The position numbers and the translations under genes were made by a program. Positions 840 through 50,669 of a stretch of DNA of 64,000 bases are shown in pieces. The notes under the pieces were generated by a model. That model ran no database searches, had not been told where the DNA came from, and was given only the letters and a program-made list of their open reading frames with translations. The DNA comes from an uncultured Candidatus Bathyarchaeia archaeon. Its GTDB lineage: Archaea > Thermoproteota > Bathyarchaeia > TCS64. Each line of letters starts with the position of its first letter. The stretch's first letter is position 1. The DNA lies in the NCBI GenBank assembly GCA_964487465.1, contig CAZAQI010000001.1, forward strand, positions 1,768-65,767, written 5' to 3'.

Positions 840-2365
840 ATCCCCGAGAGTATCAAGCACCCAGATGGAGTGAACTCATAATACATGAGCTCAGTACTCC
901 TGGTGAGAGAGGATTCATTCCACCAAGATCAGAGGAAAAAATCAGAAAAAGAGTCGGGAAAGGTAGCAGTCTGGTACCCGAATCCATGAAACGAAGAAAA
1001 GATCCCGAGCTACCTGAGCTAAGCCAGCCCCATGTCCTGCGGCATTATCTTAGGCTCAGCCAGATGACTCTGGGGATGGAGATGGACATCGATCTGGGTG
1101 TTGGTACATGTACCATGAAGTACAGTCCCAAGATAAACGAGGAGTTGGCTGGCATGATCAAAGACATCCACCCACATCAACCAACCGAATCTATACAGGG
1201 TTTACTGGAGATAGCATACGAGTTCGGTAACACTTATCTACGTGAACTAAGCGGCATGGATGCTTTCACGTATCAGCCACCGGGGGGATCAGCTGGTTGC
1301 TACAATAATGCGCTAATCATGAGAAAATACCATGCCGACAGGGATGAGTCCCACCGAGACGAAGTGATCACCACTATTTACAGTCATCCATGCGATGCGG
1401 CCGCACCAGCGACAGCCGGTTACAAAGTTATTACCCTTTACCCTGATCCCGAAACCGGGTTACCTGACACCGAAGCATTAAAGGAGGCAGTTGGACCCAA
1501 CACGGCTGGCTGCTTCATCACCAACCCCGAGGACATCGGCATATTCAACAAGAACATTGATGCATGGACCGAGATAATCCACGACGCTGGTGGATTATGC
1601 AGCTATGATCAGGCTAACGCCAACGCTTTGCTGGGTGTCACACGTGCCCGTGAAGCCGGGTTCGATATGCTATTCTTCAACCTTCACAAGACCTTCAGCA
1701 GCCCCCACGGGAGCAGTGGACCGGGCTCAGCCGCGGTCGGGGTAACCGAGGAACTAGAGGAGTACCTGCCGGTGCCAGTTATCGTGAAGAAAGAAGAGGG
1801 GTACACGCTGGATTATAATCGCCCCAAGAGCATAGGTAAGATACGGGACTTCATGGGGAATCTGCCCGTGGTGGTGCGTAGCTACGCATGGTGTATGGCT
1901 ATGGGAGCCCAGGGGCTACGGGAAGTCGCTGAGGTAAGCATGATCAACAATCAGTACCTTATGGAGAAAGTCAAGAAGATTAGGGGAGTAACCCTGACCT
2001 ACCCTAGGCGTAGAGTGGATCAGGCAAGGTGGAGCCTAGAAAAGATGAAACAGGAGACAGGCGTAGGTATCAGGGATGTGAATAGAAGAGTAATAGATTT
2101 CGGTGTCCAGAGCTACTTCATGAGCCACCACCCATGGCTCATACCAGAACCCTTCACACCCGAACCCGCTGAAACCTACAGTAAAAAAGACATCGACTAC
2201 TGGTGCAGTGTTCTGGAGAAGGTGAGTGAGGAAGCCTACAAGGACCCTGAGTTGGTGAAGTCGGCTCCCCATCGTAGCAGCATCCATAAAATCGAGTGGG
2301 ACGGCTTCAACGACCCCGAGAAGTGGGCTATGAGCTGGAGAGCGTACAGGAGGAAACACAGATGA
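836..2365 (+). CDS. gcvPB: glycine dehydrogenase (decarboxylating) subunit 2
   Basis: 509 aa. A PLP-dependent GcvPB-like sequence (FNLHKTFSSPHGSSGPGSAAVGV). It sits directly after gcvPA with translational coupling. Confidence 0.9.
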   Translation: MNPREYQAPRWSELIIHELSTPGERGFIPPRSEEKIRKRVGKGSSLVPESMKRRKDPELPELSQPHVLRHYLRLSQMTLGMEMDIDLGVGTCTMKYSPKINEELAGMIKDIHPHQPTESIQGLLEIAYEFGNTYLRELSGMDAFTYQPPGGSAGCYNNALIMRKYHADRDESHRDEVITTIYSHPCDAAAPATAGYKVITLYPDPETGLPDTEALKEAVGPNTAGCFITNPEDIGIFNKNIDAWTEIIHDAGGLCSYDQANANALLGVTRAREAGFDMLFFNLHKTFSSPHGSSGPGSAAVGVTEELEEYLPVPVIVKKEEGYTLDYNRPKSIGKIRDFMGNLPVVVRSYAWCMAMGAQGLREVAEVSMINNQYLMEKVKKIRGVTLTYPRRRVDQARWSLEKMKQETGVGIRDVNRRVIDFGVQSYFMSHHPWLIPEPFTPEPAETYSKKDIDYWCSVLEKVSEEAYKDPELVKSAPHRSSIHKIEWDGFNDPEKWAMSWRAYRRKHR

Positions 2366-3144
2366 AGAGACTTGAGGGAAAAAAAGCGGTAGTAACTGGA
2401 GCCATGCAGGGAATAGGAGCCGGAATCAGCAAATGTCTGGCATTCAACGGCGCAGAGGTAGTGCTAACAGATATCAGTGAACAGGTTGAGCAAACAGCGA
2501 AAGAGATCGAAAAAGCTTCATGGAGAGTAATGGATGTAACGGATCCGAGTCAGGTGAAACAGGTCTTCGATGAAGTTAACCCTGTGGATATACTGGTGAA
2601 CAACGCAGGTATCTACCCACGCATGAATCTGGAGGACATGGATGAAGGGTTCATGAAGCGTATGTTCGACATAAACGTTTTCGGTATGTTCCGCTGTAGC
2701 AAAGCAGTGCTACCCGAGATGAAGAAACAGAGAAAAGGCAAGATCATCAACATGAGCAGCGTAACCGGACCCATGGTAGGAGCCCCCAGTGGCGGACAGA
2801 CAGCTTATGGAGCCACCAAAGCAGCCGTGATCGGTTTCACCAAGGCACTTGCCCTAGAAACAGCCCAGTATGGAATCAATGTGAACACAATACTACCGGG
2901 GTATATTCACAGCCCCAGCGCCTTTGAGTTAAGAGGCAGTGAAGACAGTTCAGACGCTGAGAAAGCTATGAAGGAATTCGGCTACAAGATACCAATGGGG
3001 CGCCAAGGGACACCTGAGGATATAGGTAACCTGGTAGTTTTCCTAGCATCAGATGAGTCTGATTATCTTACTGGAAGCGAGATAGTCAGCGATGGAGGTA
3101 ATATACTACAGGAAGAGTACTTAGGTCCATATAAGCCAAGATAG
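2362..3144 (+). CDS. short-chain dehydrogenase/reductase (SDR) family oxidoreductase
   Basis: Rossmann motif TGAMQGIGAGI near the N-terminus and the catalytic YGATKAAV (YxxxK) motif. I prefer the ATG at 2362, which overlaps the gcvPB stop as ATGA, over the longer ORF start at 2296. Confidence 0.8.
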   Translation: MKRLEGKKAVVTGAMQGIGAGISKCLAFNGAEVVLTDISEQVEQTAKEIEKASWRVMDVTDPSQVKQVFDEVNPVDILVNNAGIYPRMNLEDMDEGFMKRMFDINVFGMFRCSKAVLPEMKKQRKGKIINMSSVTGPMVGAPSGGQTAYGATKAAVIGFTKALALETAQYGINVNTILPGYIHSPSAFELRGSEDSSDAEKAMKEFGYKIPMGRQGTPEDIGNLVVFLASDESDYLTGSEIVSDGGNILQEEYLGPYKPR

Positions 3145-3283
3145 GGAGAGAAGTTCAAATCATTAAACAAGTTTCCTTTTTACTGGAAAACTCCAAAATA
3201 ATTTCTTTCCGATCTAAACACCTACTAAATCGTACACGACGAAACAAGAAAAACGTAGATATTACCGGGAGCATATAACGCAT

Positions 3284-4387
3284 CTAAGCCAGCTTATAGA
3301 GGGTACGTCTACCAAACCCCGTGCGTACCTTATAGTAGCCCCTCAACTCCTCATCCAACTCCGAGTCACCTGTATCCACCCGCAGAGGATGCCCTCCAAG
3401 ACTAGCTAGCTTCTCAGGGGTAGCCACTATTATGATATTCTCCTTACCGACCTCCCGTATAACCTTGGGGCTTATCTGCTGATTTCCACGTCCGAATACG
3501 AAGCCCTGGCCACCGATGACAGTCACTATGAGGTTGACCTCCTCACCCTCAATAACCTCCAGTAACTGTTTTTCGTTAACATCCTTGGCTACCAGTTCCC
3601 CGTTCTTCACCACATCCACACCCAGTAAGGTCTTATCGACCCCTAGTATATCCGCGATTGGTTTAACCGTGGTTCCCGGCCCCAAGATATAGACCATATC
3701 CTGCTCCATCTCATCCGTTATCTCATTAGCTATACCGATGACACTGGACTCCCCAGTCAGCCTACTGGACTCCTTACCCCCCTGAATATAATCCTCAACA
3801 TACAGGGTGTTCATATAACCGTAGAGCTGAGCCTGAAGCCGATTATCCCTGAAAGCCTCCTCATCGATATCCATAACCTCCTCAAGCCGGAAGTCAACGC
3901 TCCCACCCGAGATGTACCGGTGTAATAACTCACCTGCGCTCCGAGGGTCCAAGGCGTAGACACCTGAATGAATCTTAACCCCAGTAGGTATACCCAGAAC
4001 AGGCACCTCCTCACCTACTACTGAGTAGACATCACGGACGGTTCCATCCCCTCCAGCGAAAACAAGCAGATCCACCTTATCCATAAGAGCCTCAGCAGCC
4101 TTCATGGTATCCTCAGCTGTCGTAGTATCACCAATGAGCTCCCCTAACACAATAGGGTCCAACCCAGCTTCCCTAGCCTCATTCTCCCCCATCTCACCCG
4201 GGTAAGTATAGAGCTCAAACTCAAGCCCCCTCAACTGCCTTAGCGCATCCACTGTTCTAGTCGGGGACATGGGTTCCGCCCCCATCTCTAAGGCCTTCTT
4301 CTTTATCTCCGCCCCATCGCTTCCCTTCAAGCCCACCCTGCCACCTATTCCTGCAAAGGGGTTTACAATTAACCCAATTTTCTTCAA
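3284..4387 (-). CDS. ATP-NAD kinase / diacylglycerol-kinase-like family protein
   Basis: N-terminal GLIVNPFAGIGG and a GGDGT motif (LVFAGGDGTVRDV), as in the NAD kinase/DAGK superfamily. 367 aa. Confidence 0.5.
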   Translation of the reverse strand: MKKIGLIVNPFAGIGGRVGLKGSDGAEIKKKALEMGAEPMSPTRTVDALRQLRGLEFELYTYPGEMGENEAREAGLDPIVLGELIGDTTTAEDTMKAAEALMDKVDLLVFAGGDGTVRDVYSVVGEEVPVLGIPTGVKIHSGVYALDPRSAGELLHRYISGGSVDFRLEEVMDIDEEAFRDNRLQAQLYGYMNTLYVEDYIQGGKESSRLTGESSVIGIANEITDEMEQDMVYILGPGTTVKPIADILGVDKTLLGVDVVKNGELVAKDVNEKQLLEVIEGEEVNLIVTVIGGQGFVFGRGNQQISPKVIREVGKENIIIVATPEKLASLGGHPLRVDTGDSELDEELRGYYKVRTGFGRRTLYKLA

Positions 4388-4389
4388 GC

Positions 4390-5643
4390 CTATTCCTCGT
4401 ACTCTATGTATCTCATTACTGTTAATGCTAGGGTCTTTACCATGGTCTCCAGTTGGTCTACGGACACGTACTCGTTGGCCCCGTGGGCATCTCTTACATC
4501 CCCTGGCCCAAAGACCGTGGTAGGAGTCTCGGCCACATTGATGAGGTGCCTTACATCCGATGCGTAGGTCATGCCCTCGTACACGGGTTCATCGCCTGTT
4601 ACATCGTTGTATGCTTTTCCTATCTCCTGTACAATAGGGTGATCTAAGGGTATCATAGATGAGGCGAAGCTGTATCCAGCCCACTCCACTTTTGGGTTAT
4701 GCTCTCTGAGCCAAGGGTCATCCTCCGCGATCTGATTGATCTTAGCCTCAAGCTCGATCTTTGCTGATTCCTCTGATTCACCAACAGCCACACCGATCCG
4801 TCCCTCGAAAACCACGCTCTCGGCCACGGTACCGGGCCATTCACCGCCCTTCACGGTGCCGATGCTGATGGCGTAAGGTGACTCATATCGAGTATAAAGA
4901 GGGTCTTTGAATCTATTGTTCCGCGTCTTCTCCAGCTCCATTAATCCATCATATAGTTTGATGAATTTCTCGATAGCACTAACCCCTTCATTCTTAACAC
5001 AGGCATGAACTGCCCTCCCCGGTACGGTTATCTTGAAGCTTATGGCTCCAGCGATTTCGGGGGCTATCTTGGTCTCACTGGGCTCCATGACTATACCGGC
5101 GTCAGCTTTGTATCCTCTGAGACATGTTGCTAGGGCTCCGCATCCTCCGTCCTCTTCCCCTATTACGCTCTGGAAGATTATCTTCCCTTTTGGATTAACA
5201 GTGTCTATTACTGCTTTTACCGCGTATAGTGCTCCTATGAGGGCTGCTTTCATGTCAGTGGATCCGCGTCCATAGAGCCTATCATCTTTGATCACTGCCT
5301 TGAGTGGGGGCGTCTCCCAGTTCTCTGGGTTTCCCGGTGCCACTGTATCGATGTGCCCGCAGATTATGAGACTCTTACCCTCTTCGCCTCCAATGGTTCC
5401 CACCACGCCTAAGCCTTCCTCGCGATCATAACTCATGCTGAAGTCGGGGTGTTCACAGAGTTCATCAAATTCAATCATCCATTTATCCACATTGAACCCC
5501 ATCTGGGTGAGCCTCTCCGCCATCTTCATCTGTGCTTTGGTTTCTAGTCCACCATAGCTGGGTGTAGCGATCATCTCCTCTATGAAGCTATACATAGAGT
5601 CATAATCGATTGAGTCTAGGACGCGTCTCTCTACGGGTTTCAT
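4390..5643 (-). CDS. M20 family metallopeptidase (ArgE/DapE/acetylornithine deacetylase-like)
   Basis: Motifs ICGHIDTVAPG, GRGSTDMKAAL and IGEEDGG are typical of M20 dinuclear zinc peptidases. I chose the MKPVERR start (ATG at 5643). The longer ORF, starting at 5730, overlaps the upstream gene. Confidence 0.75.
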   Translation of the reverse strand: MKPVERRVLDSIDYDSMYSFIEEMIATPSYGGLETKAQMKMAERLTQMGFNVDKWMIEFDELCEHPDFSMSYDREEGLGVVGTIGGEEGKSLIICGHIDTVAPGNPENWETPPLKAVIKDDRLYGRGSTDMKAALIGALYAVKAVIDTVNPKGKIIFQSVIGEEDGGCGALATCLRGYKADAGIVMEPSETKIAPEIAGAISFKITVPGRAVHACVKNEGVSAIEKFIKLYDGLMELEKTRNNRFKDPLYTRYESPYAISIGTVKGGEWPGTVAESVVFEGRIGVAVGESEESAKIELEAKINQIAEDDPWLREHNPKVEWAGYSFASSMIPLDHPIVQEIGKAYNDVTGDEPVYEGMTYASDVRHLINVAETPTTVFGPGDVRDAHGANEYVSVDQLETMVKTLALTVMRYIEYEE

Positions 5644-5671
5644 ATACCGTATTCGGGCGCTGTGGGCTATA

Positions 5672-6262
5672 TCATCTTCGGGGGATGAGCATGGGCACCT
5701 CTTCCCTGTATCTACGGTAACGTCGACCAAACTCTCTCAGGAGCTCCTTTTCCTCCTTCCAGCATAACAGGTAGACCACAATGAACACGATTGGGGTTAC
5801 GAGCAAAGCATCTCTTGAGCCAAACAAAAAAGAAACACCCAAATGTCCAAACAATCCGCCCAGATACTGAGGATGTCTAACAACCCCGTAGACTCCTGTG
5901 GTGACAAGTTCACTTGGGCGATGGGTCTCAGAGGTCTTAAACCCCAGTTCCAGCACGCCTTTTATCCCAAACCAGAAAGCAGGTAACAATAACAGAAAAG
6001 ATAACCCGATATTCATTGACCCAAAGGTTATACCCTGAATAGTGAAAACAGGATATCCTAACCGGAACCTTTTCTGGGGGCATATCCATAAACCGATCCA
6101 GAAACAGAAGAAACCCCAGCCACTGATATAACCTAACGCATCACCCATGATAACGCTATTCTCCTTGAACCATCTCTCCAATCGGTTGTGCTCAAGGGAG
6201 AGAAAATAGGGTAGGAGTATGAGCACATAACCTGTTAAGCTTATCTTGAAGCAAATCCCCAT
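5672..6262 (-). CDS. isoprenylcysteine carboxyl methyltransferase (ICMT)/PEMT-like membrane methyltransferase
   Basis: Multi-pass membrane protein with GVYGVVRHPQYLGGLFGHLG and a C-terminal EKELLREFGRRYRRYREEVP, the ICMT/PEMT signature. It lies 28 nt upstream of the M20 peptidase gene on the same strand. Confidence 0.6.
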   Translation of the reverse strand: MGICFKISLTGYVLILLPYFLSLEHNRLERWFKENSVIMGDALGYISGWGFFCFWIGLWICPQKRFRLGYPVFTIQGITFGSMNIGLSFLLLLPAFWFGIKGVLELGFKTSETHRPSELVTTGVYGVVRHPQYLGGLFGHLGVSFLFGSRDALLVTPIVFIVVYLLCWKEEKELLREFGRRYRRYREEVPMLIPRR

Positions 6263-6351
6263 AACTTGATCACATATCCCCGGTTATTTAGGGTTAAAGA
6301 ACCCGGGAAAACATTAAGACCCTTGAAGGATACACAATTGGGATAATAGTA

Positions 6352-7380
6352 TTGAAGACAATAATGAAGACCAAGCCTGAACCAGGGGTTACGGTCAGGG
6401 AAACTCCGAGACCAGTACTATCCGATGATGAGGCACTAATCAAGGTCCACTCAGCCGCTATATGTGGAAGCGACCTGGGAATATACCATTACACGTCAGC
6501 GTACAGCAAGATGAAGCTACCAGTCGTACTGGGGCACGAGTTCTCCGGGGAGATCGTTGAGAAGGGAAAAAGAGTGAAAGGATTTGATGTTGGTGACGGT
6601 GTTCTCTCTGAGTCGGTTAAGGCTTGTGGGGTCTGCCGCTTCTGCAGGACGGGTATGAGTAACCTCTGTGATCAGTCCACTTTATTCGGTATCCACACTA
6701 ACGGTGGGTTCGCTGAATACGTTAAAGTTCCATACAGGCTACTTCATAGAATACCGGATACGATGAGTTTTGATCAGGCTGCCCTAGTTGAGCCCCTCAG
6801 TAACGCAGTACACTTTGTCAGGGATATTACGTCTTTCAAGATAGATGACTATGTGGTGGTTCAGGGGATCGGTCCTATTGGGTTATTCAGTGCACAGTTA
6901 TTCAAAATGGGAGGCGCCAGGGTAATCATAACGGGGCTGGATATAGATGAAGAGAGATTCAAGATCGCTGAGAAACTGGGGCTAGAATACGTGAATATAC
7001 AGAAAGAAGACTTGGAGAAACGAGTACTGGATGATACAGAGGAAAGAGGAGCAGATGTAGCATTCGTAGCAGTGGGGGCACCCCCAGCTGTTAAACAAGC
7101 GACAAGGATCATAAAGAAGAGAGGCGCAGTAATCATGGTGGGTATATTCGGTGAACAAGTGCCAGTAGACATGACCCATCTGGTCAGACGGGAACTAAGA
7201 ATACATGGAGCATATGACGCAAAGCCGAATAATTTCCCAATGAGTATCGACCTCATCAAAAGAGGCATCATAGATGTTGACAGCGTCCTAACCCATAGAT
7301 TCAGCCTAGACGAAGCCGAGGAAGGCTTCAGAGTAGCCATCGATAAGACAGGGGGAAAAGTAGTATTCAAACCAAATTAA
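6352..7380 (+). CDS. zinc-dependent medium-chain alcohol dehydrogenase (threonine 3-dehydrogenase / sorbitol dehydrogenase-like)
   Basis: Catalytic zinc motif GHEFSGEIVEKG, structural zinc motif CGVCRFCRTGMSNLC, and GIGPIGL Rossmann motif. Confidence 0.8.
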   Translation: MKTIMKTKPEPGVTVRETPRPVLSDDEALIKVHSAAICGSDLGIYHYTSAYSKMKLPVVLGHEFSGEIVEKGKRVKGFDVGDGVLSESVKACGVCRFCRTGMSNLCDQSTLFGIHTNGGFAEYVKVPYRLLHRIPDTMSFDQAALVEPLSNAVHFVRDITSFKIDDYVVVQGIGPIGLFSAQLFKMGGARVIITGLDIDEERFKIAEKLGLEYVNIQKEDLEKRVLDDTEERGADVAFVAVGAPPAVKQATRIIKKRGAVIMVGIFGEQVPVDMTHLVRRELRIHGAYDAKPNNFPMSIDLIKRGIIDVDSVLTHRFSLDEAEEGFRVAIDKTGGKVVFKPN

Positions 7381-7457
7381 CGGATAAATGGAGGAGTTTC
7401 CTTATCCGGCTCCCCAGTCTCTATTTCGGTCTTTTCTTATTCGCCTTAGGGGCGGTT

Positions 7458-8030
7458 ATGATACTTTATGCTGACCTGGGGATGAGTCCTTGGGGTGTCT
7501 TCCAAGTGGGGTTAATGAATAGCGTTGGTTTGACCTTTGGACAAGCATCACAAGTGGTGGGTCTAGGCGTACTGGTGCTAGGATGGTTACTTGGGTTTCC
7601 ACCGGGTTTCGGTACGGTGATGAACATGTATTTCATAGGGTACTTTATCGACAGGATCATCGAGTGGAGGATTGTGCCACGATTCAATAACCTAGGCATG
7701 CAGCTAGTTCTACTGGTGGGGGGAATGGGCATGATCGGTGTTGCCAGCTACTTCTATCTGCGCCCAAAGTTGGGAGCGGGGCCTAGGGACGGCTTGATGA
7801 TCGGATTGGTCCAGAAACTTGACCGCCCTGTTGGTCAGGTTAGAGGAGGCATTGAGGTAACAGTAACGGTACTGGGTTATCTTATGGGAGGCCCTATAGG
7901 ATTGGGCACGGTTATCACTGCTTTAAGTATAGGATACTTTGTACAGTTAGCGTTCAAGCTGGGAAACTATGATCGAAACGCTAAACACATGAACCTCTAC
8001 GAGTTAGCAAAATACCTCACAGGCCAATAA
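7458..8030 (+). CDS. small polytopic membrane protein (YczE/YitT-like, uncertain); true start may lie upstream at a non-ATG codon
   Basis: Hydrophobic, glycine-rich helices. The frame stays open and hydrophobic (FGLFLFALGAV) upstream of the first ATG. Confidence 0.4.
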   Translation: MILYADLGMSPWGVFQVGLMNSVGLTFGQASQVVGLGVLVLGWLLGFPPGFGTVMNMYFIGYFIDRIIEWRIVPRFNNLGMQLVLLVGGMGMIGVASYFYLRPKLGAGPRDGLMIGLVQKLDRPVGQVRGGIEVTVTVLGYLMGGPIGLGTVITALSIGYFVQLAFKLGNYDRNAKHMNLYELAKYLTGQ

Positions 8031-8075
8031 CGGTTAACGTTAAAGCCCCCTTAATCACTGTTTTACTGGATTACG

Positions 8076-8579
8076 ATGCCAAAGATCGAGGGATTAGAGT
8101 GGAAGATCAGGGAAGCAACAGAGAAAGATATCCCCGTTATACTTGATCTCTGCTACCAGCTCAGCGTCTATGAGAAACTAGAATTCAAGGGAACAGAAGA
8201 ACAATACAGAAAATATGGATTCGGAGAAGATGCCATATATGACTGCCTTCTGGCTGAGAACACAGGGGAGGTTGGACCAGACTATCTGGGGATAGCCCTC
8301 TACTATTACACGTTCAGCACATTTGAGGCAAAACCAACCCTGTGGCTAGAAGACATCTTCGTACCCGAGGCATACAGGGGAAACGGAATAGGAACACAGC
8401 TCCTCAAACAATTATGCCAGATAGCGGTAGAGAAGGATTGCGGGCGTGTAGAGTGGACAGTACTGGACTGGAACGAGCCCAGCAGACAGTTCTACTTCAG
8501 CCTAGGCGCCACAGCCATGGATGAATGGACCACTTTCAGAATGACCCCGGATGTCTTTAAGAAGCTAGCCGAGGGATAA
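8076..8579 (+). CDS. GNAT family N-acetyltransferase
   Basis: GNAT motif A: RGNGIGTQLLKQLCQIAVEKDCGRVEWTV. Confidence 0.75.
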   Translation: MPKIEGLEWKIREATEKDIPVILDLCYQLSVYEKLEFKGTEEQYRKYGFGEDAIYDCLLAENTGEVGPDYLGIALYYYTFSTFEAKPTLWLEDIFVPEAYRGNGIGTQLLKQLCQIAVEKDCGRVEWTVLDWNEPSRQFYFSLGATAMDEWTTFRMTPDVFKKLAEG

Positions 8580-8796
8580 CACCTGCTCAAAGAAACTCGG
8601 TTCTACTCTAATTAACCCATTTTTAGTCAAAGGTTCTCCATGTAATGTCTTTGGTTTTCTTTATAACTCGTTAAACAGGTATCTTAAAAGAAGAGAAAAG
8701 ATCGAAAAAATGTATACATGATTACTGTATCATTGGTTTTCTATAGATGCTCCGCGAAACCCTTTTAATTGATTGGAGAATTGATTGTGGTTGCGT

Positions 8797-8868
8797 GGCC
8801 GCTGTGGTGTAATGGTAGCATACGGGCCTGTGGAGCCCTCGGACGGGGTTCGATTCCCCGCTGCGGCC
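8797..8868 (+). tRNA. tRNA-His (anticodon GTG) with genomically encoded G-1
   Basis: Manual cloverleaf fold. Acceptor GCCGCUG pairs with CUGCGGC, with one U.U mismatch. The anticodon loop is CUGUGGA and the T-loop is UUCGAUU. An extra 5-prime G pairs with discriminator C73, as expected for tRNA-His. One C.U mismatch closes the anticodon stem. Confidence 0.65.
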
Positions 8869-8916
8869 CATCCCAAAAACATAAATCAGTATCGATGGTT
8901 TATGCAGTGTATCTGT

Positions 8917-9004
8917 GCGGAGGTCGCCCAGCATGGCCAAAGGCGCAAGGTTGAGGGCCTTGTCTCTTAGGAGTTCGTGGGTTCAAATCCCACCCTCCGC
9001 ACCA
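8917..9004 (+). tRNA. tRNA-Leu (anticodon GAG), class II with long variable arm, encoded CCA
   Basis: Acceptor GCGGAGG pairs with CCUCCGC. Anticodon stem CAAGG/CCUUG with loop UUGAGGG. Long variable arm, T-loop UUCAAAU, discriminator A and CCA. Closely matches archaeal tRNA-Leu architecture. Confidence 0.85.
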
Positions 9005-9221
9005 CTTTTCGAGGGCGTTTCGAGTCGTTTTAGGGGATATTTCGTGGAAAGAAGACCTCTTTCATCCGCTTCATTATAAATGAGTTATTGTCGTTAGCTA
9101 TCCAATCTAATTCTTACGGTTTTAAGAGTTGTTAGGGTTCAAAATAAAACCAAAGTTAGCACTATATGCTCTATAATAATCAATAAGTTGTAAAATTAAT
9201 ATAAAAGTGGGGTTAGGAGGG

Positions 9222-9986
9222 TTACTCCTTGACAGTCTCTAGTTCATTGACCTCAACGGCACCCAGATACATTTCCTCTAGCTGTGGGTGATTCAACAAG
9301 TCAGGGGCGCTTCCCTCAAATGTGAAGTTTCCACCTCTCATCATGTATGCATAGTCGCCTACGGCCAACGCACGACGTGCACGCTGCTCAACCAGGATAA
9401 TTGGTAGACCAGTCTCTTCCGCCATTTCTTTCAACTGCTTCATGACGTCGGTAACCAGTTTAGGCATGAGGCCCGCGGTCGGCTCATCGACCATCATGAT
9501 CTTGGGGTCCCTCATGAGGACCATTCCCTCGGCTAGCATCTGGCGCTCACCGCCGCTCAAGGTACCTGCTTCACGAGGCATATAGTCCTTGAGTCTTGGG
9601 AACAGGCTGAAGACGAACTCTAGTTTATCCTGTATGACTTCTGAATCGGTCTGCGTGTAGGCAGCCATCCTCAGGTTCTCGTCCACGCTCAGGTTGCTGA
9701 ATATGTTTCCTACCTGTGGCATGTATCCGATACCCAAGTTGGTTCTCTGGTGTGCGGGTAGATTAGTAATATCATTACCCTCAAAGTGAACCTCGCCGCT
9801 ATAGACAGTAGCCAAACCCATGATCGCTTTTAGAAGGGTAGTCTTTCCGACCCCGTTGGGGCCTACAATGATTGTGACCTCCCCGTCCCTGACCTTGAAG
9901 TCAAGATCGTATATTACGTGGATTGGTCCATAGCCCACGTTTAGGCTCTTTGTTTCTAGTATGTATTTACTTCCCATCTTACTCAC
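9222..9986 (-). CDS. livF: branched-chain amino acid ABC transporter ATP-binding protein (LivF-like)
   Basis: Walker A GPNGVGKTT, signature LSGGERQML, Walker B MMVDEPTAGL. Confidence 0.85.
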   Translation of the reverse strand: MSKMGSKYILETKSLNVGYGPIHVIYDLDFKVRDGEVTIIVGPNGVGKTTLLKAIMGLATVYSGEVHFEGNDITNLPAHQRTNLGIGYMPQVGNIFSNLSVDENLRMAAYTQTDSEVIQDKLEFVFSLFPRLKDYMPREAGTLSGGERQMLAEGMVLMRDPKIMMVDEPTAGLMPKLVTDVMKQLKEMAEETGLPIILVEQRARRALAVGDYAYMMRGGNFTFEGSAPDLLNHPQLEEMYLGAVEVNELETVKE

Positions 9987-42908: not shown

Positions 42909-43110
42909 GGGTTAGAATAGGTGTAGGGGGTTATTACCTTTTTTCAATAAATGATCAATACTATATATTCACAAGAGACGCATCAAATGAACCAGAAATA
43001 GACGCGATGACACCTGTACGCTAATACTTTACTGTAACCGGAAACCCGATTCCTTTAGTCAATGTTTAAAAATGAGGCTAAGCTAAGAAGACAGAGTCCG
43101 AGGAAAAACG

Positions 43111-45165
43111 ATGCTCATCCGTGAGGTAATACTAGAGAACTTTATGTCATACGAGTACGCCAGAGTACCCCTGAAAGAAGGGGTGAACGTGGTCTGCGGC
43201 CCCAACGGATCCGGGAAAAGCAGTCTACTACTGGGGATATGCGTCGCCCTCGGAGACACTTATACGGAAAGATCAAAGAAACTCAGCGACCTCATCAGAT
43301 GGGGGAGCGAGACAGCCAGGGTCACACTGATACTGGATAACACGTTTGGAGAGAACGGTTACAGACCAGTTCCCCAGTATAATATGGATGAGATTACACT
43401 CACAAGAACCCTGAGGGTAGATGGAAAATATGGTTTTAGGGTTAACCAGAGAAACGTGACCAAGGCGGAGGTAATGGGGCTTCTGCGAACCTATGGCTTC
43501 GACCCCACTAATATGCTGATAATCATGCATCAAGCCATGCCCAGCAAGTTCGCTAACATAAACCCCAAGGAGAGACTTCAGATATTGGAGGAAGCAGTGG
43601 GCTTCGATACATTCAGGGAAGACGTGATAGAGGCGAAGAAAAAACTCAGCGGGGTGCTGAGCGAGGAGGAGAGTCTCGGTAACTTGCTGAATCAAGCAAG
43701 GGAGACACTAAATTACTGGCGTGAACAGAATGAACGCCTTCAGGAGAAAAAGCAGTTAGATAAGAGACAGACGTTTCTACAGCAGGAGATGGCTTGGAGT
43801 AGGGTAATGTCCATGGAGGAACAGGTGGAGAAACTCCAAGAACAGCTAAAGGATACGGAAAAGGAGCTGTTTGAAGCAGAGGAGGAGATGGAGCAGAACA
43901 CCAAGCTAATAGTGGACAGCGAGCAAATGCTCCAGAATCTAAGAACCCAGCGGGAAGACCTCATCGAGAAACGTATCGAATCAGAGAGGATCGTCGGGGT
44001 AAGCGAACACAGCATCAACACGGCTAAAGACAGGCTCAATCAGCTAGAAGATAATATACTGGAGAGCAATCAACAGAGAAGACGATTCGAAACCAGCTAC
44101 AAGAACCTTTTAAACCAGCTAGAGATGGGCCCCACCAAGCTGGATGACTACTTCAAGCTCTTTGAGGAGCTAGAGGAGACACAGGTAGAGACATATGAGA
44201 ACCTAAGCAATCAGTTTCACGCACAGAGAAACACGATCCAGACCCAGTTAGAGACATATACTCGGCGGTTAACCACAGCAGAGGAAGAAGCCCAGAAAAT
44301 AGTAACAGAGATAAATCAACTGCGTGGGAGAATCGATAAAGCAAATGATCAATACATCGATAGTAGAATCAACCTGGCGTTACTGAAGGATCGGCGCCAA
44401 CGCCTGAACCGTAGAGTAGAGGCATTAAAGGCAGAGATGGATAGGGCTAACCGTGACCTGAATGACGCTGAAGCGGAGGCATTAATCAAAGGGCAGCGGA
44501 TCGAGACAGGGAGAACCGGGGAAGAGATTCTTAACGAGATAAGAAAGACTCAGGGAATCCTCATGGGGATGTCCAATATACCTGATGAAGCTGAGGAGAT
44601 GTACGAGAGCTACAACGAGACATTCAAAGAGATACAGCAGCGAATCGAGGAAGTAAAAGAGAACCGCCGTAAAATACTCAAGGAGATCGAGGAACGAAAC
44701 AAGAAATGGAGACAGGTAACAGAGAAACTCCTCGACGACGTTAATATACGGTACAAGGAGTTACTAAAGAGACTTCAGGCGAACGGAGAAGTCAGATTAA
44801 TCGACAGCCACGACATCGAAGAAGCAGGATTAGAGATATTCGTAGGGTTCAAAGGTGCTCCACCCAGCAGACTCGACCCGTACACGCATAGTGGTGGAGA
44901 GCGGAGCAGCAGCGTTATGGCGTTCCTGCTCTCACTACAACAAAATGTATTGAGCCCTTTCAGGGCTGTGGACGAGTTCGATCTCCACATGGATCCCCAG
45001 AATAAGGAGGCGGTTAGTGAGTTCATCGTGCAGACCATGGAGGGCACTGATGACCAGTACATGGCTATTACCCCTAGCCAGATTACCTTCAAGGGGAAAG
45101 ATGTGCACATTATCATGGTTCATAAAACGGAGACGGTCTCAGAGCCCACTGTAGTGGAGGAATAA
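43111..45165 (+). CDS. SMC-like ABC ATPase, hinge-less (684 aa): head-coiled coil-short apex-coiled coil-head
   Basis: Walker A GPNGSGKSS (31-38). Q-loop IIMHQAM. A roughly 390-aa heptad-rich coiled-coil region with a Gly-Pro break (LEMGPTKLDDY, residues 338-347) exactly at the protein midpoint and no hinge domain or CxxC hook. Signature THSGGERSS, Walker B VDEFDLHMD, H-loop VHIIMVHK. Confidence 0.75.
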   Translation: MLIREVILENFMSYEYARVPLKEGVNVVCGPNGSGKSSLLLGICVALGDTYTERSKKLSDLIRWGSETARVTLILDNTFGENGYRPVPQYNMDEITLTRTLRVDGKYGFRVNQRNVTKAEVMGLLRTYGFDPTNMLIIMHQAMPSKFANINPKERLQILEEAVGFDTFREDVIEAKKKLSGVLSEEESLGNLLNQARETLNYWREQNERLQEKKQLDKRQTFLQQEMAWSRVMSMEEQVEKLQEQLKDTEKELFEAEEEMEQNTKLIVDSEQMLQNLRTQREDLIEKRIESERIVGVSEHSINTAKDRLNQLEDNILESNQQRRRFETSYKNLLNQLEMGPTKLDDYFKLFEELEETQVETYENLSNQFHAQRNTIQTQLETYTRRLTTAEEEAQKIVTEINQLRGRIDKANDQYIDSRINLALLKDRRQRLNRRVEALKAEMDRANRDLNDAEAEALIKGQRIETGRTGEEILNEIRKTQGILMGMSNIPDEAEEMYESYNETFKEIQQRIEEVKENRRKILKEIEERNKKWRQVTEKLLDDVNIRYKELLKRLQANGEVRLIDSHDIEEAGLEIFVGFKGAPPSRLDPYTHSGGERSSSVMAFLLSLQQNVLSPFRAVDEFDLHMDPQNKEAVSEFIVQTMEGTDDQYMAITPSQITFKGKDVHIIMVHKTETVSEPTVVEE

Positions 45166-45166
45166 G

Positions 45167-45940
45167 ATGAGTGAGCTTGAGAGCGTCATAAACCTATGCA
45201 GGATGGTTCAGAGCGGTAAGATAGAGCCATTTGACATCGACTTCGACTATGTGATGAGCGTCATCAAGAAACATTATCCTAACATTAAGAACCCTAAGGA
45301 TTTCTGCTTAGACGCTGAGGCGCTGAGGGAGCTCAGTAACGTGCTTGAGCGCCAGAACCAGTGGATAGAGCACAAGTCCACGACGCTATACAAGGACCCA
45401 TTCATGCTGAGCCAGAGCCTATTAGCATTGGATATCGGAGCCATCGCGGATCTATTTCTCAGAACATGGCATCCATTGGTGGAGTTGGAGCAGATGAGCG
45501 CAGGCACTCTGGGAGCTAGCCTCGGGTACTGGGGGGACCTCGTTCCCATCGATGAGAGATGGCAAGACGAGGAGGTGGAGGAGAGAGAGACAGGCAGGAC
45601 CACCCGTGACGAGGTGCGGCGGATGGGGTTACTGCCAGAGGAAGGATTTACTGAGGTGATAGAGAAACTCTGGCAGGAGCTTGAGGAAAAAGTGGGATCT
45701 GGTGGGAGTATCGATTACTGGGACTGGATCGGTGCAGACACCTACGAGGAGACTGTTAACAGGGCTTATCTAACCGTATTCATGGTGGGTTACGGGTACG
45801 CGGGCGTCGAGTGGGACCAGTTAATGGATGAATACACTATTATCCATAAAGAGGAGCCCATACCGGACCCTGAGCAGGGAAAAGTAAGCCTACCAGTGCT
45901 AGTAGATTATGAGGAGTGGAAACTATGGCGAAACGAGTAA
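45167..45940 (+). CDS. kleisin-like protein (ScpA-like N-terminal and C-terminal winged-helix regions), tentative
   Basis: It starts 2 nt after the SMC-like stop. The N-terminus LESVINLCRMVQSGKIEPFDIDFDYVMSVIKKHY resembles the ScpA LDLLLHLI...IDIYDIPIAEITEQYL motif. The C-terminal TVNRAYLTVFMVGYGYAGVEWDQLMDEYTI resembles the ScpA WHD (FLALLELvk...leQ). Acidic linker in the middle. Confidence 0.5.
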   Translation: MSELESVINLCRMVQSGKIEPFDIDFDYVMSVIKKHYPNIKNPKDFCLDAEALRELSNVLERQNQWIEHKSTTLYKDPFMLSQSLLALDIGAIADLFLRTWHPLVELEQMSAGTLGASLGYWGDLVPIDERWQDEEVEERETGRTTRDEVRRMGLLPEEGFTEVIEKLWQELEEKVGSGGSIDYWDWIGADTYEETVNRAYLTVFMVGYGYAGVEWDQLMDEYTIIHKEEPIPDPEQGKVSLPVLVDYEEWKLWRNE

Positions 45941-46521
45941 GCAAGGCAGAGCAGCATTATCAACGTAAACTCAAGGACGCAGTGCATCTATTATTCTTCA
46001 CGCATCATAAATTACCCGGGGTTAGAGGCTGGGAGTTACGAAAGGAACTGGGATCCGACTGGCAGAACATCCTTGAGGTATTGGATAAACAGCTCCAACC
46101 ATTTGACCTCCAGGTCACCAGAGTACTTGATGACCCGGATATCGTTGACCCCACCAGTTCTCAGCTTCAGGACGCCAGATATTATATCACAATGAGAGGG
46201 ACCGTGGACCAGAAGACAGCCAAGACCATTGGGTGGCGTATAGATGATATCGCCGGATTAGCTGTATCCGTTGCTTATATTATCTCCAAGCAGGGAAAAT
46301 CCAGTAGACAGGACGTGGAGAGGGTTCTGGAGGAGAAGCTTCCCGGGTGGAGGGTGAAACTAAATATTGATCGTTACATCAATCAGGGGTATCTTGGTGA
46401 GGATGATCAGGGTATGCTATATCTTGATTGGCGTAGCAGAGCTGAGATAGACTCCAAGAAACTAGTGGACCTTGTGGTTAGCTATGGTAAAAGAGAGCAG
46501 GAAAAAACATCTAACGAATAG
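45925..46521 (+). CDS. tandem winged-helix (kite / ScpB-like) protein, tentative
   Basis: About 198 aa with two WH-like units: HLLFFTHHKLPGVRGWELRKELG... and LAVSVAYIISKQGKSSRQDVERVLEEKLPGWRVKLNIDRYINQGYL. It overlaps the kleisin-like stop by 16 nt. The ORF track offers a GTG start at 45916. Confidence 0.5.
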   Translation: MAKRVSKAEQHYQRKLKDAVHLLFFTHHKLPGVRGWELRKELGSDWQNILEVLDKQLQPFDLQVTRVLDDPDIVDPTSSQLQDARYYITMRGTVDQKTAKTIGWRIDDIAGLAVSVAYIISKQGKSSRQDVERVLEEKLPGWRVKLNIDRYINQGYLGEDDQGMLYLDWRSRAEIDSKKLVDLVVSYGKREQEKTSNE

Positions 46522-47464: not shown

Positions 47465-47617
47465 GTATTTTATCGCTTAAAGCAATATCTATGGGATTCT
47501 AGCAATGGTTTTCCGTTTATTAGAATTGTCTCAAATAAATGGATTATTCATGTTTATGGGTATGATTTTATAATCTGTACAACATTATCATTGATGAATA
47601 TCCCTTTAGGTGACAAA

Positions 47618-47941
47618 ATGGCGCAAGAAGACAAGATACTAGGCGTAGTAAACGCCGTTGGAATGGAGAGAGACGAGAAAGAATACAGAAAATTCAACCT
47701 AACCGTGGGAATCAAGGTAAAGACGGATAAGAGAGTATCATACACCGAGGGAGAGAAACTGATGAAACAGCTCCAGAAAGACTTGATGGGTAAAAACATC
47801 GAGCTTGAGATGGTCGCAGTCCCATGCCCCATATGCGGAAGGACGTTTAACTCCCAGTTCGGTATGGAACAACATAAACGTATGAAACACAAGGATGAAG
47901 AAAAAAAGAAGAAAAAGAAAAGCAAAAAATCAAAGAAATAG
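47618..47941 (+). CDS. C2H2 zinc-finger protein with lysine-rich C-terminal tail
   Basis: 107 aa from MAQEDKILGV. Single C2H2 finger CPICGRTFNSQFGMEQHKRMKH, followed by KDEEKKKKKKSKKSKK. The upstream part of the 211-aa ORF-track entry overlaps the cupin gene and is rejected. Confidence 0.55.
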   Translation: MAQEDKILGVVNAVGMERDEKEYRKFNLTVGIKVKTDKRVSYTEGEKLMKQLQKDLMGKNIELEMVAVPCPICGRTFNSQFGMEQHKRMKHKDEEKKKKKKSKKSKK

Positions 47942-47950
47942 GTTTAAGAA

Positions 47951-48025
47951 TGGAGCCTCGGGCGGGATTCGAACCCGCGGCCAACAGCTTACAAGGCTGC
48001 CGCTCTACCTCTGAGCTACCAAGGC
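47951..48025 (-). tRNA. tRNA-Thr (anticodon TGT), encoded CCA
   Basis: Reverse complement GCCUUGGUAGCUCAGAGGUAGAGCGGCAGCCUUGUAAGCUGUUGGCCGCGGGUUCGAAUCCCGCCCGAGGCUCCA folds as a canonical cloverleaf with anticodon loop CUUGUAA. Confidence 0.85.
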
Positions 48026-49793: not shown

Positions 49794-50669
49794 GTGCACG
49801 TCCATATGTCTGTAAACGAAAACAAACTTGATGAACTGGAAGAACAGGCAGCTGAATTAAGAGAACAGAGAAACCAGTTATTCGAGAAGATCAGTAAAAT
49901 CAGAGATGAGAGAGACCGCCTGAATAAGAAAGCCAGAGCCGCACGCGAACAAGCTCATAAGCATAAGAAAGAGAGGGATCGGATTAACGCCAAGGTACAA
50001 GAGATAAAACAGAGCCTTGGACCTCTCTTTGACGAATTATCCGAAAAAAACAAGGAGCTTAGAAAAGCGGATAGGGCTCTTAGAGAAGAGTACCGAGGAT
50101 TACCCAGTAAGAAGAAGGTCCAGGAGGACCTCAAACGCATCGAGTGGGAGGTAATGACTACGCCCACACAGGAGATGCTGGGGAGAGAAGAGGAGCTGGT
50201 TAAGCGGGCATCCGATCTCAGGAAGACCCTTGAAGAATTCAAGGGAATCGAAGAGAAGAAAGATGTGAAAAAGGATTATCTCGCGGATAAGAGAACCACG
50301 GAAGCAGAGATTAATGCTCTCAGAGACGAGATCAACCAGTTGGCTGAGAAGAGTCAGGAACACCATGAACGAATGATTCTATTCTTCGAGCAAGCGGATA
50401 AAGACCAAGAGATGGCCGACGCCGCCCATAAACGCTACGTAGATAAGATTAAAGAGGCTGATGAGATTAAGAGCGAGCTCAGCGTAATTATGCCTGAGGT
50501 CAATGCTTTAAAGGATGGACTTGCAGCTCATGATCAAAGACTCGCCGAGCTACGTAAGATGAACGCCCAGGAGAGAGCTGAGGCTAGGAAACAGGCGGCT
50601 ATTAAGAAGATGGAGAACGGGGAGAAGCTCAGTTTCCAGGAGCTTAAACTCATCTACGATGAAGAGTAA
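49794..50669 (+). CDS. archaeal coiled-coil protein (COG1340-like), function unknown
   Basis: About 290 aa, almost entirely heptad-repeat, charged (E/K/R-rich) sequence. Confidence 0.45.
   Translation: MHVHMSVNENKLDELEEQAAELREQRNQLFEKISKIRDERDRLNKKARAAREQAHKHKKERDRINAKVQEIKQSLGPLFDELSEKNKELRKADRALREEYRGLPSKKKVQEDLKRIEWEVMTTPTQEMLGREEELVKRASDLRKTLEEFKGIEEKKDVKKDYLADKRTTEAEINALRDEINQLAEKSQEHHERMILFFEQADKDQEMADAAHKRYVDKIKEADEIKSELSVIMPEVNALKDGLAAHDQRLAELRKMNAQERAEARKQAAIKKMENGEKLSFQELKLIYDEE

Follow-up and report, generated by a model that had tools for sequence, protein, structure and literature searches.

Three tightly packed genes at positions 43,111 to 46,521 of a 64,000-nucleotide (nt) stretch of DNA from an uncultured Candidatus Bathyarchaeia archaeon (assembly GCA_964487465.1, contig CAZAQI010000001.1, positions 1,768 to 65,767 of the forward strand; hereafter the window) raise the question of which complex they encode and whether it is a new one. 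Their products are an SMC-type ATPase (gene 1; SMC stands for structural maintenance of chromosomes), a kleisin-like protein (gene 2) and a tandem winged-helix (WH) protein of the kite type (gene 3). In the original prediction they had been described as a condensin-like operon built on a half-length ATPase, as a system not yet described in archaea and as a possible second, specialised DNA-organising or plasmid-restricting complex. The composition of the operon was supported by a Pfam SMC_N match for gene 1, kleisin profile matches for gene 2 and a predicted kite fold for gene 3. As set out below, the operon is probably the SMC5/6-related SMC-kleisin-kite complex of archaea in its Bathyarchaeia version, a vertically inherited housekeeping machine of chromosome maintenance that most likely stands beside a canonical Smc-ScpAB.

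Identity of the kleisin and the kite

Neither gene 2 nor gene 3 gave a significant match in Pfam, NCBIfam or PADLOC, and no ScpA or ScpB family was found among the models searched. For gene 2, profiles of homologs were compared with the Protein Data Bank (PDB). Yeast Nse4 was the best match of the initial profile (E-value 0.024), followed by EID3 and the ScpA N-domain. With a profile broadened by the corresponding genes from four distant loci (A5), the matches to yeast Nse4 reached 1.8e-4 for two sequence versions and 4.7e-4 for a third construct; human EID3 was next at 0.0059, then the ScpA N-domain at 0.008. The top five matches were all kleisins, which favours a kleisin fold for the gene 2 product.

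The N-terminus of this protein (residues ~3-69) is a helical region that resembles ScpA, and the C-terminus (~146-222) an Nse4_C-like winged helix; between them lies an acidic linker (~124-148; the most acidic 25-residue stretch contains 10 Asp/Glu). The ScpA-like N-terminus and the acidic linker had been predicted correctly; the C-terminus had been assigned to ScpA as well but looks like Nse4_C. In the kleisin of a more distant relative (locus L084, see below), Nse4_C was matched at 7.7e-5. Gene 2 would accordingly be read as resembling an Nse4-related kleisin more than a ScpA-type one, a comparison of similarity and not of phylogeny.

The AlphaFold2 model of gene 3 (mean predicted local distance difference test score, pLDDT, 71.8) consists of two WH modules and no further domain. 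In a Foldseek comparison with the PDB, the top four matches were Nse1 (7.6e-4), Nse3 (1.1e-3), MAGE-A4 and MAGE-G1, which favours a kite fold; JetB appeared at rank 7 and MukE lower. Fold comparison alone gave matches, and nothing was found in the PDB with the gene 3 sequence profile, either single-family or broadened. Among 53 gene 3 homologs, Pfam SMC_Nse1 was weakly matched in 6, and none matched Pfam ScpB. The expected tandem-WH kite of about 200 amino acids (aa) was found (198 aa); its likeness to ScpB, MukE or JetB gave way to one to Nse1 and Nse3. On the basis of the model, gene 3 is predicted to be an Nse1/3-like kite, not a ScpB-like or MukE-like one. The identity of gene 3 to its listed homologs (73-99%) equals that of the ATPase and is well above that of the kleisin (57-98%), which is unusual for an accessory SMC subunit.

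Published archaeal operons of the same kind

Operons of this composition have been published. van Hooff, Raas, Tromer & Eme (bioRxiv 10.1101/2024.01.07.573240) described TACK and Asgard archaea with two SMC-kleisin-kite operons. The condensin/cohesin-related one includes a ScpB-like kite; in the SMC5/6-related one, the kleisin is Nse4-related and the kite Nse1/3-like. In their Supplementary Table 3, the Nse1/3-related kite is present in 18 of 21 Bathyarchaeia genomes and the ScpB-like kite likewise in 18 of 21; in the Bathyarchaeia rows, Nse4-related kleisin and kite are adjacent wherever both were found. Bathyarchaeota archaeon E29_bin60 serves there as a gene-cluster example with both operons. 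According to the supplementary text of the same study, the SMC5/6-related SMC and the kleisin are adjacent in 2 of 9 species, and kleisin and kite in 31 of 31. The low first figure could be due to solo paralogues like the hook-bearing form described below. For the ATPase, 80 homologs termed 'SMC5/6-related aSMC', mostly from TACK archaea including Bathyarchaeota, were reported by Yoshinaga & Inagaki in 2021 as a clade sister to eukaryotic SMC5+SMC6, in a survey that accepted proteins of 500-1500 aa (PMC8665677).

The operon in the window has the features of this archaeal complex: the order SMC-kleisin-kite in one orientation, adjacent kleisin and kite genes, a TACK host, a predicted Nse4-related kleisin and a predicted Nse1/3-like kite. 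Nothing defining differs. Since an SMC5/6-related operon with a Bathyarchaeota example has been published, the claim that the system had not been described in archaea, central to the original prediction, fails. The triad is a member of an already described kind, and it is the short, hinge-less architecture that has apparently gone unremarked: loss of the hinge or shortening is mentioned in neither phylogenomic paper (PMC8665677, bioRxiv 10.1101/2024.01.07.573240), and literature searches gave no other paper. Of the archaeal complex regarded as the ancestor of eukaryotic Smc5/6, the locus is a clean full-length example. In public records all three protein families are labelled 'hypothetical' or 'AAA family ATPase', and the three proteins could now be named in annotation.

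The ATPase and its relatives

Gene 1 matched Pfam SMC_N over residues 3-675 (4.9e-32). In the PDB, the P. furiosus Smc head (4.6e-30), yeast Smc5 (1.3e-28) and human Smc6 (1e-24) were found, and the best stretch aligned residues 501-659 of gene 1 to residues 893-1053 of yeast Smc5. The best NCBIfam model was SMC_prok_A (203 bits, cut-off 729), and SMC_prok_B gave 175 bits (cut-off 567).

More than 120 cluster representatives are 73-99% identical to gene 1, and nearly all of them are 684-686 aa long (a few 680-697). Such a constant length across clusters is not due to chance, and a truncated or frameshifted canonical SMC is excluded by its occurrence in more than 100 clusters. For a wider survey, gene 1 was used in a phmmer search against 1.84 billion cluster representatives. 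The nearest relatives in it (E < 1e-90, 33-57% identity) form about 50 clusters of short proteins, 548-685 aa at full length. Their Walker A lies around residue 30 and their signature some 90 residues before the C-terminus, and none has a CxxC. The short hinge-less form is the norm of the family. Canonical archaeal SMCs found in the same search are 1177-1178 aa long, and the Pfam hinge was confirmed in the one that was scanned; they score 974-1125 bits, and three of four pass SMC_prok_A. With 684 aa against ~1170-1180 aa, the ATPase is, as had been stated, about half the canonical length. Just outside the family, the named matches that were checked were eukaryotic Smc5 (Dictyostelium, mite, spider) and ATPases of Hodarchaeota and Thorarchaeota.

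Several results weigh against an SMC5/6-related assignment. The ATPase on its own does not discriminate, with 128.6 bits to Dictyostelium Smc5 and 114-117 bits to canonical archaeal SMCs, and its best PDB match is the head of a canonical Smc (P. furiosus). A neighbour-joining (NJ) tree of head domains was built without an outgroup and is uninformative on Smc5/6 affinity. On the side of the partners, Pfam Nse4_C was matched weakly in 14 of 53 gene 2 homologs (best 0.0078, below the gathering score), and the gene 3 model is of moderate confidence, with Foldseek TM-scores (template modelling scores) of ~0.3, which are explained by a different orientation of the two WH modules. Within the 64-kb window no open reading frame (ORF) of at least 1000 aa was found, and co-occurrence with a canonical smc/scpA/scpB set rests on the published genomes. 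The margin is small (about 10 bits) and the tree is not rooted by an outgroup, so that it is the published phylogenies, together with the nature of the partners, that speak for the Smc5/6 affinity of the ATPase itself.

The same results bear on a different explanation, that the operon is the sole condensin of the organism, a shortened orthologous Smc-ScpAB doing bulk chromosome organisation. It would account for SMC_prok_A as the best NCBIfam model, for the P. furiosus Smc head as the best structural match, for the ScpA N-domain among the matches of gene 2 and for the high conservation of these core-genome genes. However, the 203 bits stay far under the cut-off of SMC_prok_A, genes 2 and 3 match no ScpA or ScpB model of Pfam or NCBIfam, and the best matches of the partners are Nse4 and Nse1/Nse3 instead of the ScpA C-terminus and ScpB. 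In addition, a single condensin is at odds with the published survey (bioRxiv 10.1101/2024.01.07.573240), in which 18 of 21 Bathyarchaeia have a ScpB-like kite and E29_bin60 has both operons, and we consider this explanation very unlikely.

Head, arm and apex of the ATPase

All ABC (ATP-binding cassette)/SMC head motifs that had been listed for gene 1 were located (Table 1), and all are invariant in an alignment of 41 Bathyarchaeia homologs. The catalytic set is complete and the active site is predicted to be intact.

The arm between the two halves of the head contains 16.5% Glu, 0.5% Pro (two prolines) and no Cys. In the AlphaFold2 model, helices were assigned by DSSP to residues 166-339, 344-356, 359-460, 470-486 and 494-553, with a pLDDT of 78-94 over most of the arm. 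Helices 166-339 and 359-460 are linked by a 4-residue turn (GPTK) and a 13-residue helix, and the returning strand is interrupted at residues 461-469 and 487-493. The head was modelled with a pLDDT of ~30 because the alignment was shallow and contained close homologs only; the arm alone was interpreted from the model. No match to Pfam SMC_hinge (PF06470) was obtained in the gene 1 protein, and its only cysteines, C29 and C44, form no CxxC zinc hook. Together with the two arm prolines, the continuous helices and the bare turn of the model, these results confirm the description as half-length, hinge-less and hook-less.

The apex lies where a hinge or a zinc hook would sit. The segment LEMGPTKLDDY had been placed at residues 338-347 and actually occupies residues 337-347. 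L344, D345, Y347 and F348 are the same in all 41 Bathyarchaeia homologs; for L350 and F351, conservation is at least 90%. Across the wider ATPase family the apex is neither alignable nor conserved. Its conservation in Bathyarchaeia argues for a function of the apex helix, possibly in dimerisation.

Conservation and genomic context

Most close homologs of the three proteins are from Candidatus Bathyarchaeota/Bathyarchaeia; the labels of a few others read Thermoproteota or 'archaeon', and that of one names a bacterium. A protein of 686 aa that is 74% identical to gene 1 (P0056, HUV53640.1) carries the label 'Candidatus Krumholzibacteriaceae bacterium' and probably stems from a mis-binned archaeal contig in a bacterial metagenome-assembled genome (MAG).

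The three-gene arrangement is conserved. In MAG E4H04, the triad has the consecutive locus tags 04795 to 04805. In a complete Bathyarchaeota genome (CP070784.1, locus L001), it is preceded by a Peptidase_M19 gene in divergent orientation, and the same holds for the window. At positions 7948-9999 of L001, the ATPase ortholog is split into two called genes of 201 aa and 457 aa, 72 nt apart, upstream of an intact kleisin and kite; the split could reflect a frameshift, an error of sequencing or a real pseudogene. A scan of genome contigs with the family alignment mostly retrieved bacterial SMC loci via the generic Walker A motif, and was useful for a 'Thaumarchaeota' MAG (L002) and a Thermofilales MAG (L003), both of which have the triad with short ATPases. 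Two metagenome contigs carry triads of 646, 268 and 191 aa (L085) and of 653, 235 and 193 aa (L088); the partners in L085 match the gene 2 and gene 3 profiles with an hhalign probability of 100%. The gene order is the same in L001, L002, L003, L083, L085 and L088, and the triad was present in every related locus with enough downstream sequence that was examined (Bathyarchaeia, Thermofilales, 'Thaumarchaeota' and unclassified metagenome). In L085 (positions 1389-6329), the triad is directly followed by genes for Snf7/CdvB-like and CdvA proteins of the TACK cell-division machinery, a weak hint of a link to cell division.

In the window, the triad is surrounded by genes for an aminotransferase, a dipeptidase, a cupin, an FMN reductase and an arginine deiminase-like protein. 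No nuclease, integrase, mobile or defence gene was found in this neighbourhood, and the GC content is even across the window.

This setting bears on an anti-plasmid or anti-phage system of the Wadjet/MksBEFG or Lamassu type, which would detect foreign DNA through loop extrusion or by recognising its ends, and would bring in a nuclease encoded elsewhere. Eukaryotic Smc5/6 restricts extrachromosomal DNA, the head domain of gene 1 gave weak PADLOC matches (mad3 3.9e-27, LmuB 5e-16, and a weak and partial one to JetC), and JetB is in the Foldseek list of the kite, all of which would suit such a system. On the other hand, genes 2 and 3 have no PADLOC match, the neighbours are metabolic or informational, and in none of the seven loci that have downstream sequence (window, L001, L002, L003, L083, L085 and L088) is the triad accompanied by a JetD/MksG-type nuclease or another effector. 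Identities of 57-99% across many MAGs and the shared Peptidase_M19 synteny with a distant complete genome are also unlike patchy, fast-evolving defence islands, which makes a defence system a poor explanation of this locus with little probability. Of the second, specialised complex that had been proposed, the second complex stands (very probably beside Smc-ScpAB), whereas its role in plasmid restriction does not fit the core-genome neighbourhood devoid of a nuclease.

Diversity of the apex

The bare turn is one of several apex forms. The 982-aa ATPase P0426 (L083, positions 4014-8261) has a globular mid-domain that covers positions 4-107 of the 116 positions of Pfam SMC_hinge, with an E-value of 0.0044 that is below threshold; no hinge was found in this domain by phmmer against the PDB. 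It is followed by genes of 251 aa and 180 aa, which are homologs of genes 2 and 3 (hhalign 98.3% and 97.7%). This suggests that a hinge was ancestral in the triad and was lost in the short forms.

Three further clusters (P0377, P0390 and P0400; 1016-1047 aa, 33-38% identical to gene 1), two of them with Bathyarchaeota-named members, contain at residues ~520-545, in the middle of the molecule, the motif C-D-K-C-G, a putative zinc-hook signature (CxxC). The gene for P0377 (1047 aa; L082, positions 2105-5248) stands alone between genes for an aminotransferase and a gamma-glutamyl transpeptidase, and has neither a kleisin nor a kite as neighbour. In the rough NJ tree of head domains, which has no outgroup, the hook forms nest among the short forms with 100% bootstrap. 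One clade appears to hold divergent-hinge forms with partners, bare-turn forms (~50 clusters) and solo forms with a CxxC apex.

A more distant relative, P0441 (928 aa; L084, positions 5001-9438), is followed by a 384-aa kleisin and a gene of 173 aa. This kleisin has an extra N-terminal MarR-like winged helix besides Nse4_C, and a TIP49/RuvB-like gene lies upstream.

The hook-bearing paralogue invites a comparison with RecN and Rad50. In a DNA-end or sister tether of this style, the short arms would be rigid spacers whose apices join two head-bound DNAs, and kleisin and kite would be regulators only. The short arm, comparable to that of RecN as generally known, the missing hinge, a conserved aromatic apex helix that could mediate apex-apex contacts, and a closely related long paralogue that has a Rad50-like CxxC hook and stands alone are all in keeping with it. 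RecN and Rad50, however, have no kleisin or kite partners. The partners of the present ATPase are strictly conserved and coupled in translation, and no Mre11-type nuclease is adjacent. The tether overlaps with the SMC5/6-related complex and differs from it in mechanism, not in family; as a separate explanation we regard it as improbable.

A natural 'mini-SMC', that is, a kleisin-kite complex that works with arms of ~15-25 nm and neither hinge nor hook, is a tentative and rather doubtful extension. If the short forms truly have no apex dimerisation, the closest prokaryotic relatives of Smc5/6 would be head-and-kleisin DNA clamps and not hinge-closed rings. In this lineage it is common for the hinge to be missing and the arm to be half as long, yet kleisin and kite are kept. 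Since current models of SMC loading and loop extrusion centre on the hinge and on arm length, the series of hinge, hook and bare-apex forms could be a comparative test set, and the compact proteins could serve structural work on the Smc5/6 core.

Proposed mechanism and function

By analogy to Smc-ScpAB, MukBEF and Smc5/6, two ATPase subunits would engage their heads around two ATP molecules. One kleisin would connect one subunit, at its neck, with the other, at its cap, and a kite homodimer would bind to the middle of the kleisin. DNA may be clamped atop the engaged heads in the kleisin compartment, and ATP hydrolysis would release or translocate it. The arms, estimated at ~25 nm (~174 residues at 1.5 Å per residue), may pair via the conserved aromatic apex helix, or the subunits may be joined at the heads only. 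For the function, a role like that of Smc5/6, either in segregation or on intermediates of replication or repair, is favoured over bulk condensation or defence. A housekeeping role is preferred because of the core-genome setting, the high conservation, the probable canonical complex alongside and the lack of an accompanying nuclease.

Comparison with known complexes

The closest analogies had been sought in MksBEF/Wadjet and RecN. By kleisin profile and kite Foldseek ranking, eukaryotic Smc5/6 with Nse4 and Nse1/3 is closer: it provides the best solved-structure matches for gene 2 (Nse4, EID3) and gene 3 (Nse1, Nse3, MAGE) and the best eukaryotic match of gene 1 (Smc5), and it is likewise of the kite type and not of the hawk type. 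Unlike eukaryotic Smc5/6, the operon has one SMC gene, no hinge and arms about half as long, one kite without RING domain instead of two kites, and no Nse2, Nse5 or Nse6. With a single SMC gene in the operon, the ATPase is presumably a homodimer and not a Smc5/Smc6 heterodimer.

With canonical Smc-ScpAB, the operon shares the head motifs, the ScpA resemblance of the kleisin N-terminus, a tandem-WH kite and the operon arrangement; it differs in a 684-aa ATPase without hinge and in partners outside the ScpA and ScpB families.

The original prediction had set the operon apart from ClsN/ASRP, Rad50, RecN and Wadjet, and low model scores, the absence of CxxC and the partner set agree with this. ASRPs (ClsN/coalescin, Sph1/Sph2) are also archaeal SMC-superfamily ATPases of ~600 aa with short arms and no SMC hinge. 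The vast majority of their members have a zinc hook, and the text of the ASRP paper contains neither 'kleisin' nor 'ScpA' (PMC9389158). Gene 1 has no Cys outside the N-terminal half of the head, and its 79.5 bits to the NCBIfam ASRP model are under the cut-off of 300 and below the scores of canonical SMCs with this model; ASRP/ClsN was rejected. MukBEF, MksBEF(G) and Wadjet JetABCD have in common with the operon the triad of SMC, kleisin and kite, and JetB and MukE are among the structural matches of the kite, but MukB and JetC differ in having a hinge and far longer arms. Wadjet, Lamassu and MADS were rejected. The JetC matches are weak and partial, no JetD/MksG nuclease stands beside the triad, and significant MukF/JetA similarity is lacking in the kleisin. 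RecN and Rad50-SbcC share the SMC-type heads, and RecN also the short arms and the absence of an SMC hinge. They were rejected because gene 1 has no CxxC and reaches only ~56-70 bits with the NCBIfam Rad50 models (cut-offs 700-1087), and because kleisin and kite partners are found instead of a Mre11/SbcD neighbour.

Gene layout and neighbouring genes

In the ORF listing of the window, the three genes are co-oriented on the + strand at 43111-45165, 45167-45940 and 45916/45925-46521. They are tightly packed, as had been noted. The stop codon of gene 1 (TAA, 45163-45165) and the ATG of gene 2 (45167) are separated by 1 nt; the '+2' of the original prediction was the difference between start and end, and its overlap of 16 nt between genes 2 and 3 was correct for the ATG at 45925, which gives 198 aa. 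This ATG is taken as the true start of gene 3 because homologs begin with MA(K/Q)R. The three genes are translationally coupled. Upstream of gene 1, a putative TATA-like box (TTTAAAAA, 43065-43072) lies ~40 nt 5' of the ATG, and a putative Shine-Dalgarno-like motif (GAGG) is located at 43100-43103.

Table 1. Positions of the operon, its candidate promoter and the segments of the gene 1 product in the window.
Feature	Position	Strand	Remarks
Candidate archaeal promoter and leader	43065..43103	+	Putative, read from the nucleotide sequence
Gene 1	43111..45165	+	684-aa SMC-type ABC ATPase, archaeal SMC5/6-related family (probable), short hinge-less form
Head, N-terminal half, residues 1-165	43111..43605	+	Walker A GPNGSGKS 30-37, Q-loop Q141
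Antiparallel coiled-coil arm, residues 166-553	43606..44769	+	Predicted (AlphaFold2, DSSP); ~170 residues per strand
Arm apex LEMGPTKLDDY, residues 337-347	44119..44151	+	GPTK turn, then short aromatic helix
Head, C-terminal half, residues 554-684	44770..45165	+	Signature SGGERS 594-599, Walker B VDEFD 620-624, H-loop H626
Gene 2	45167..45940	+	257-aa predicted Nse4-like kleisin
Gene 3	45925..46521	+	198-aa predicted tandem winged-helix kite, Nse1/Nse3 type, without RING domain

Downstream of the operon, the ORF at 47615-47941 (+) encodes a small protein in which a C2H2-type zinc finger was matched (Pfam E ~3e-5) and whose C-terminal tail is rich in lysine; this ORF is adjoined by a tRNA gene at 47954-48025 (-). 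At 49794-50669 (+), 3 kb downstream of the SMC operon, a highly charged coiled-coil protein of 291 aa is encoded, which matched DUF7121 (8.4e-11).

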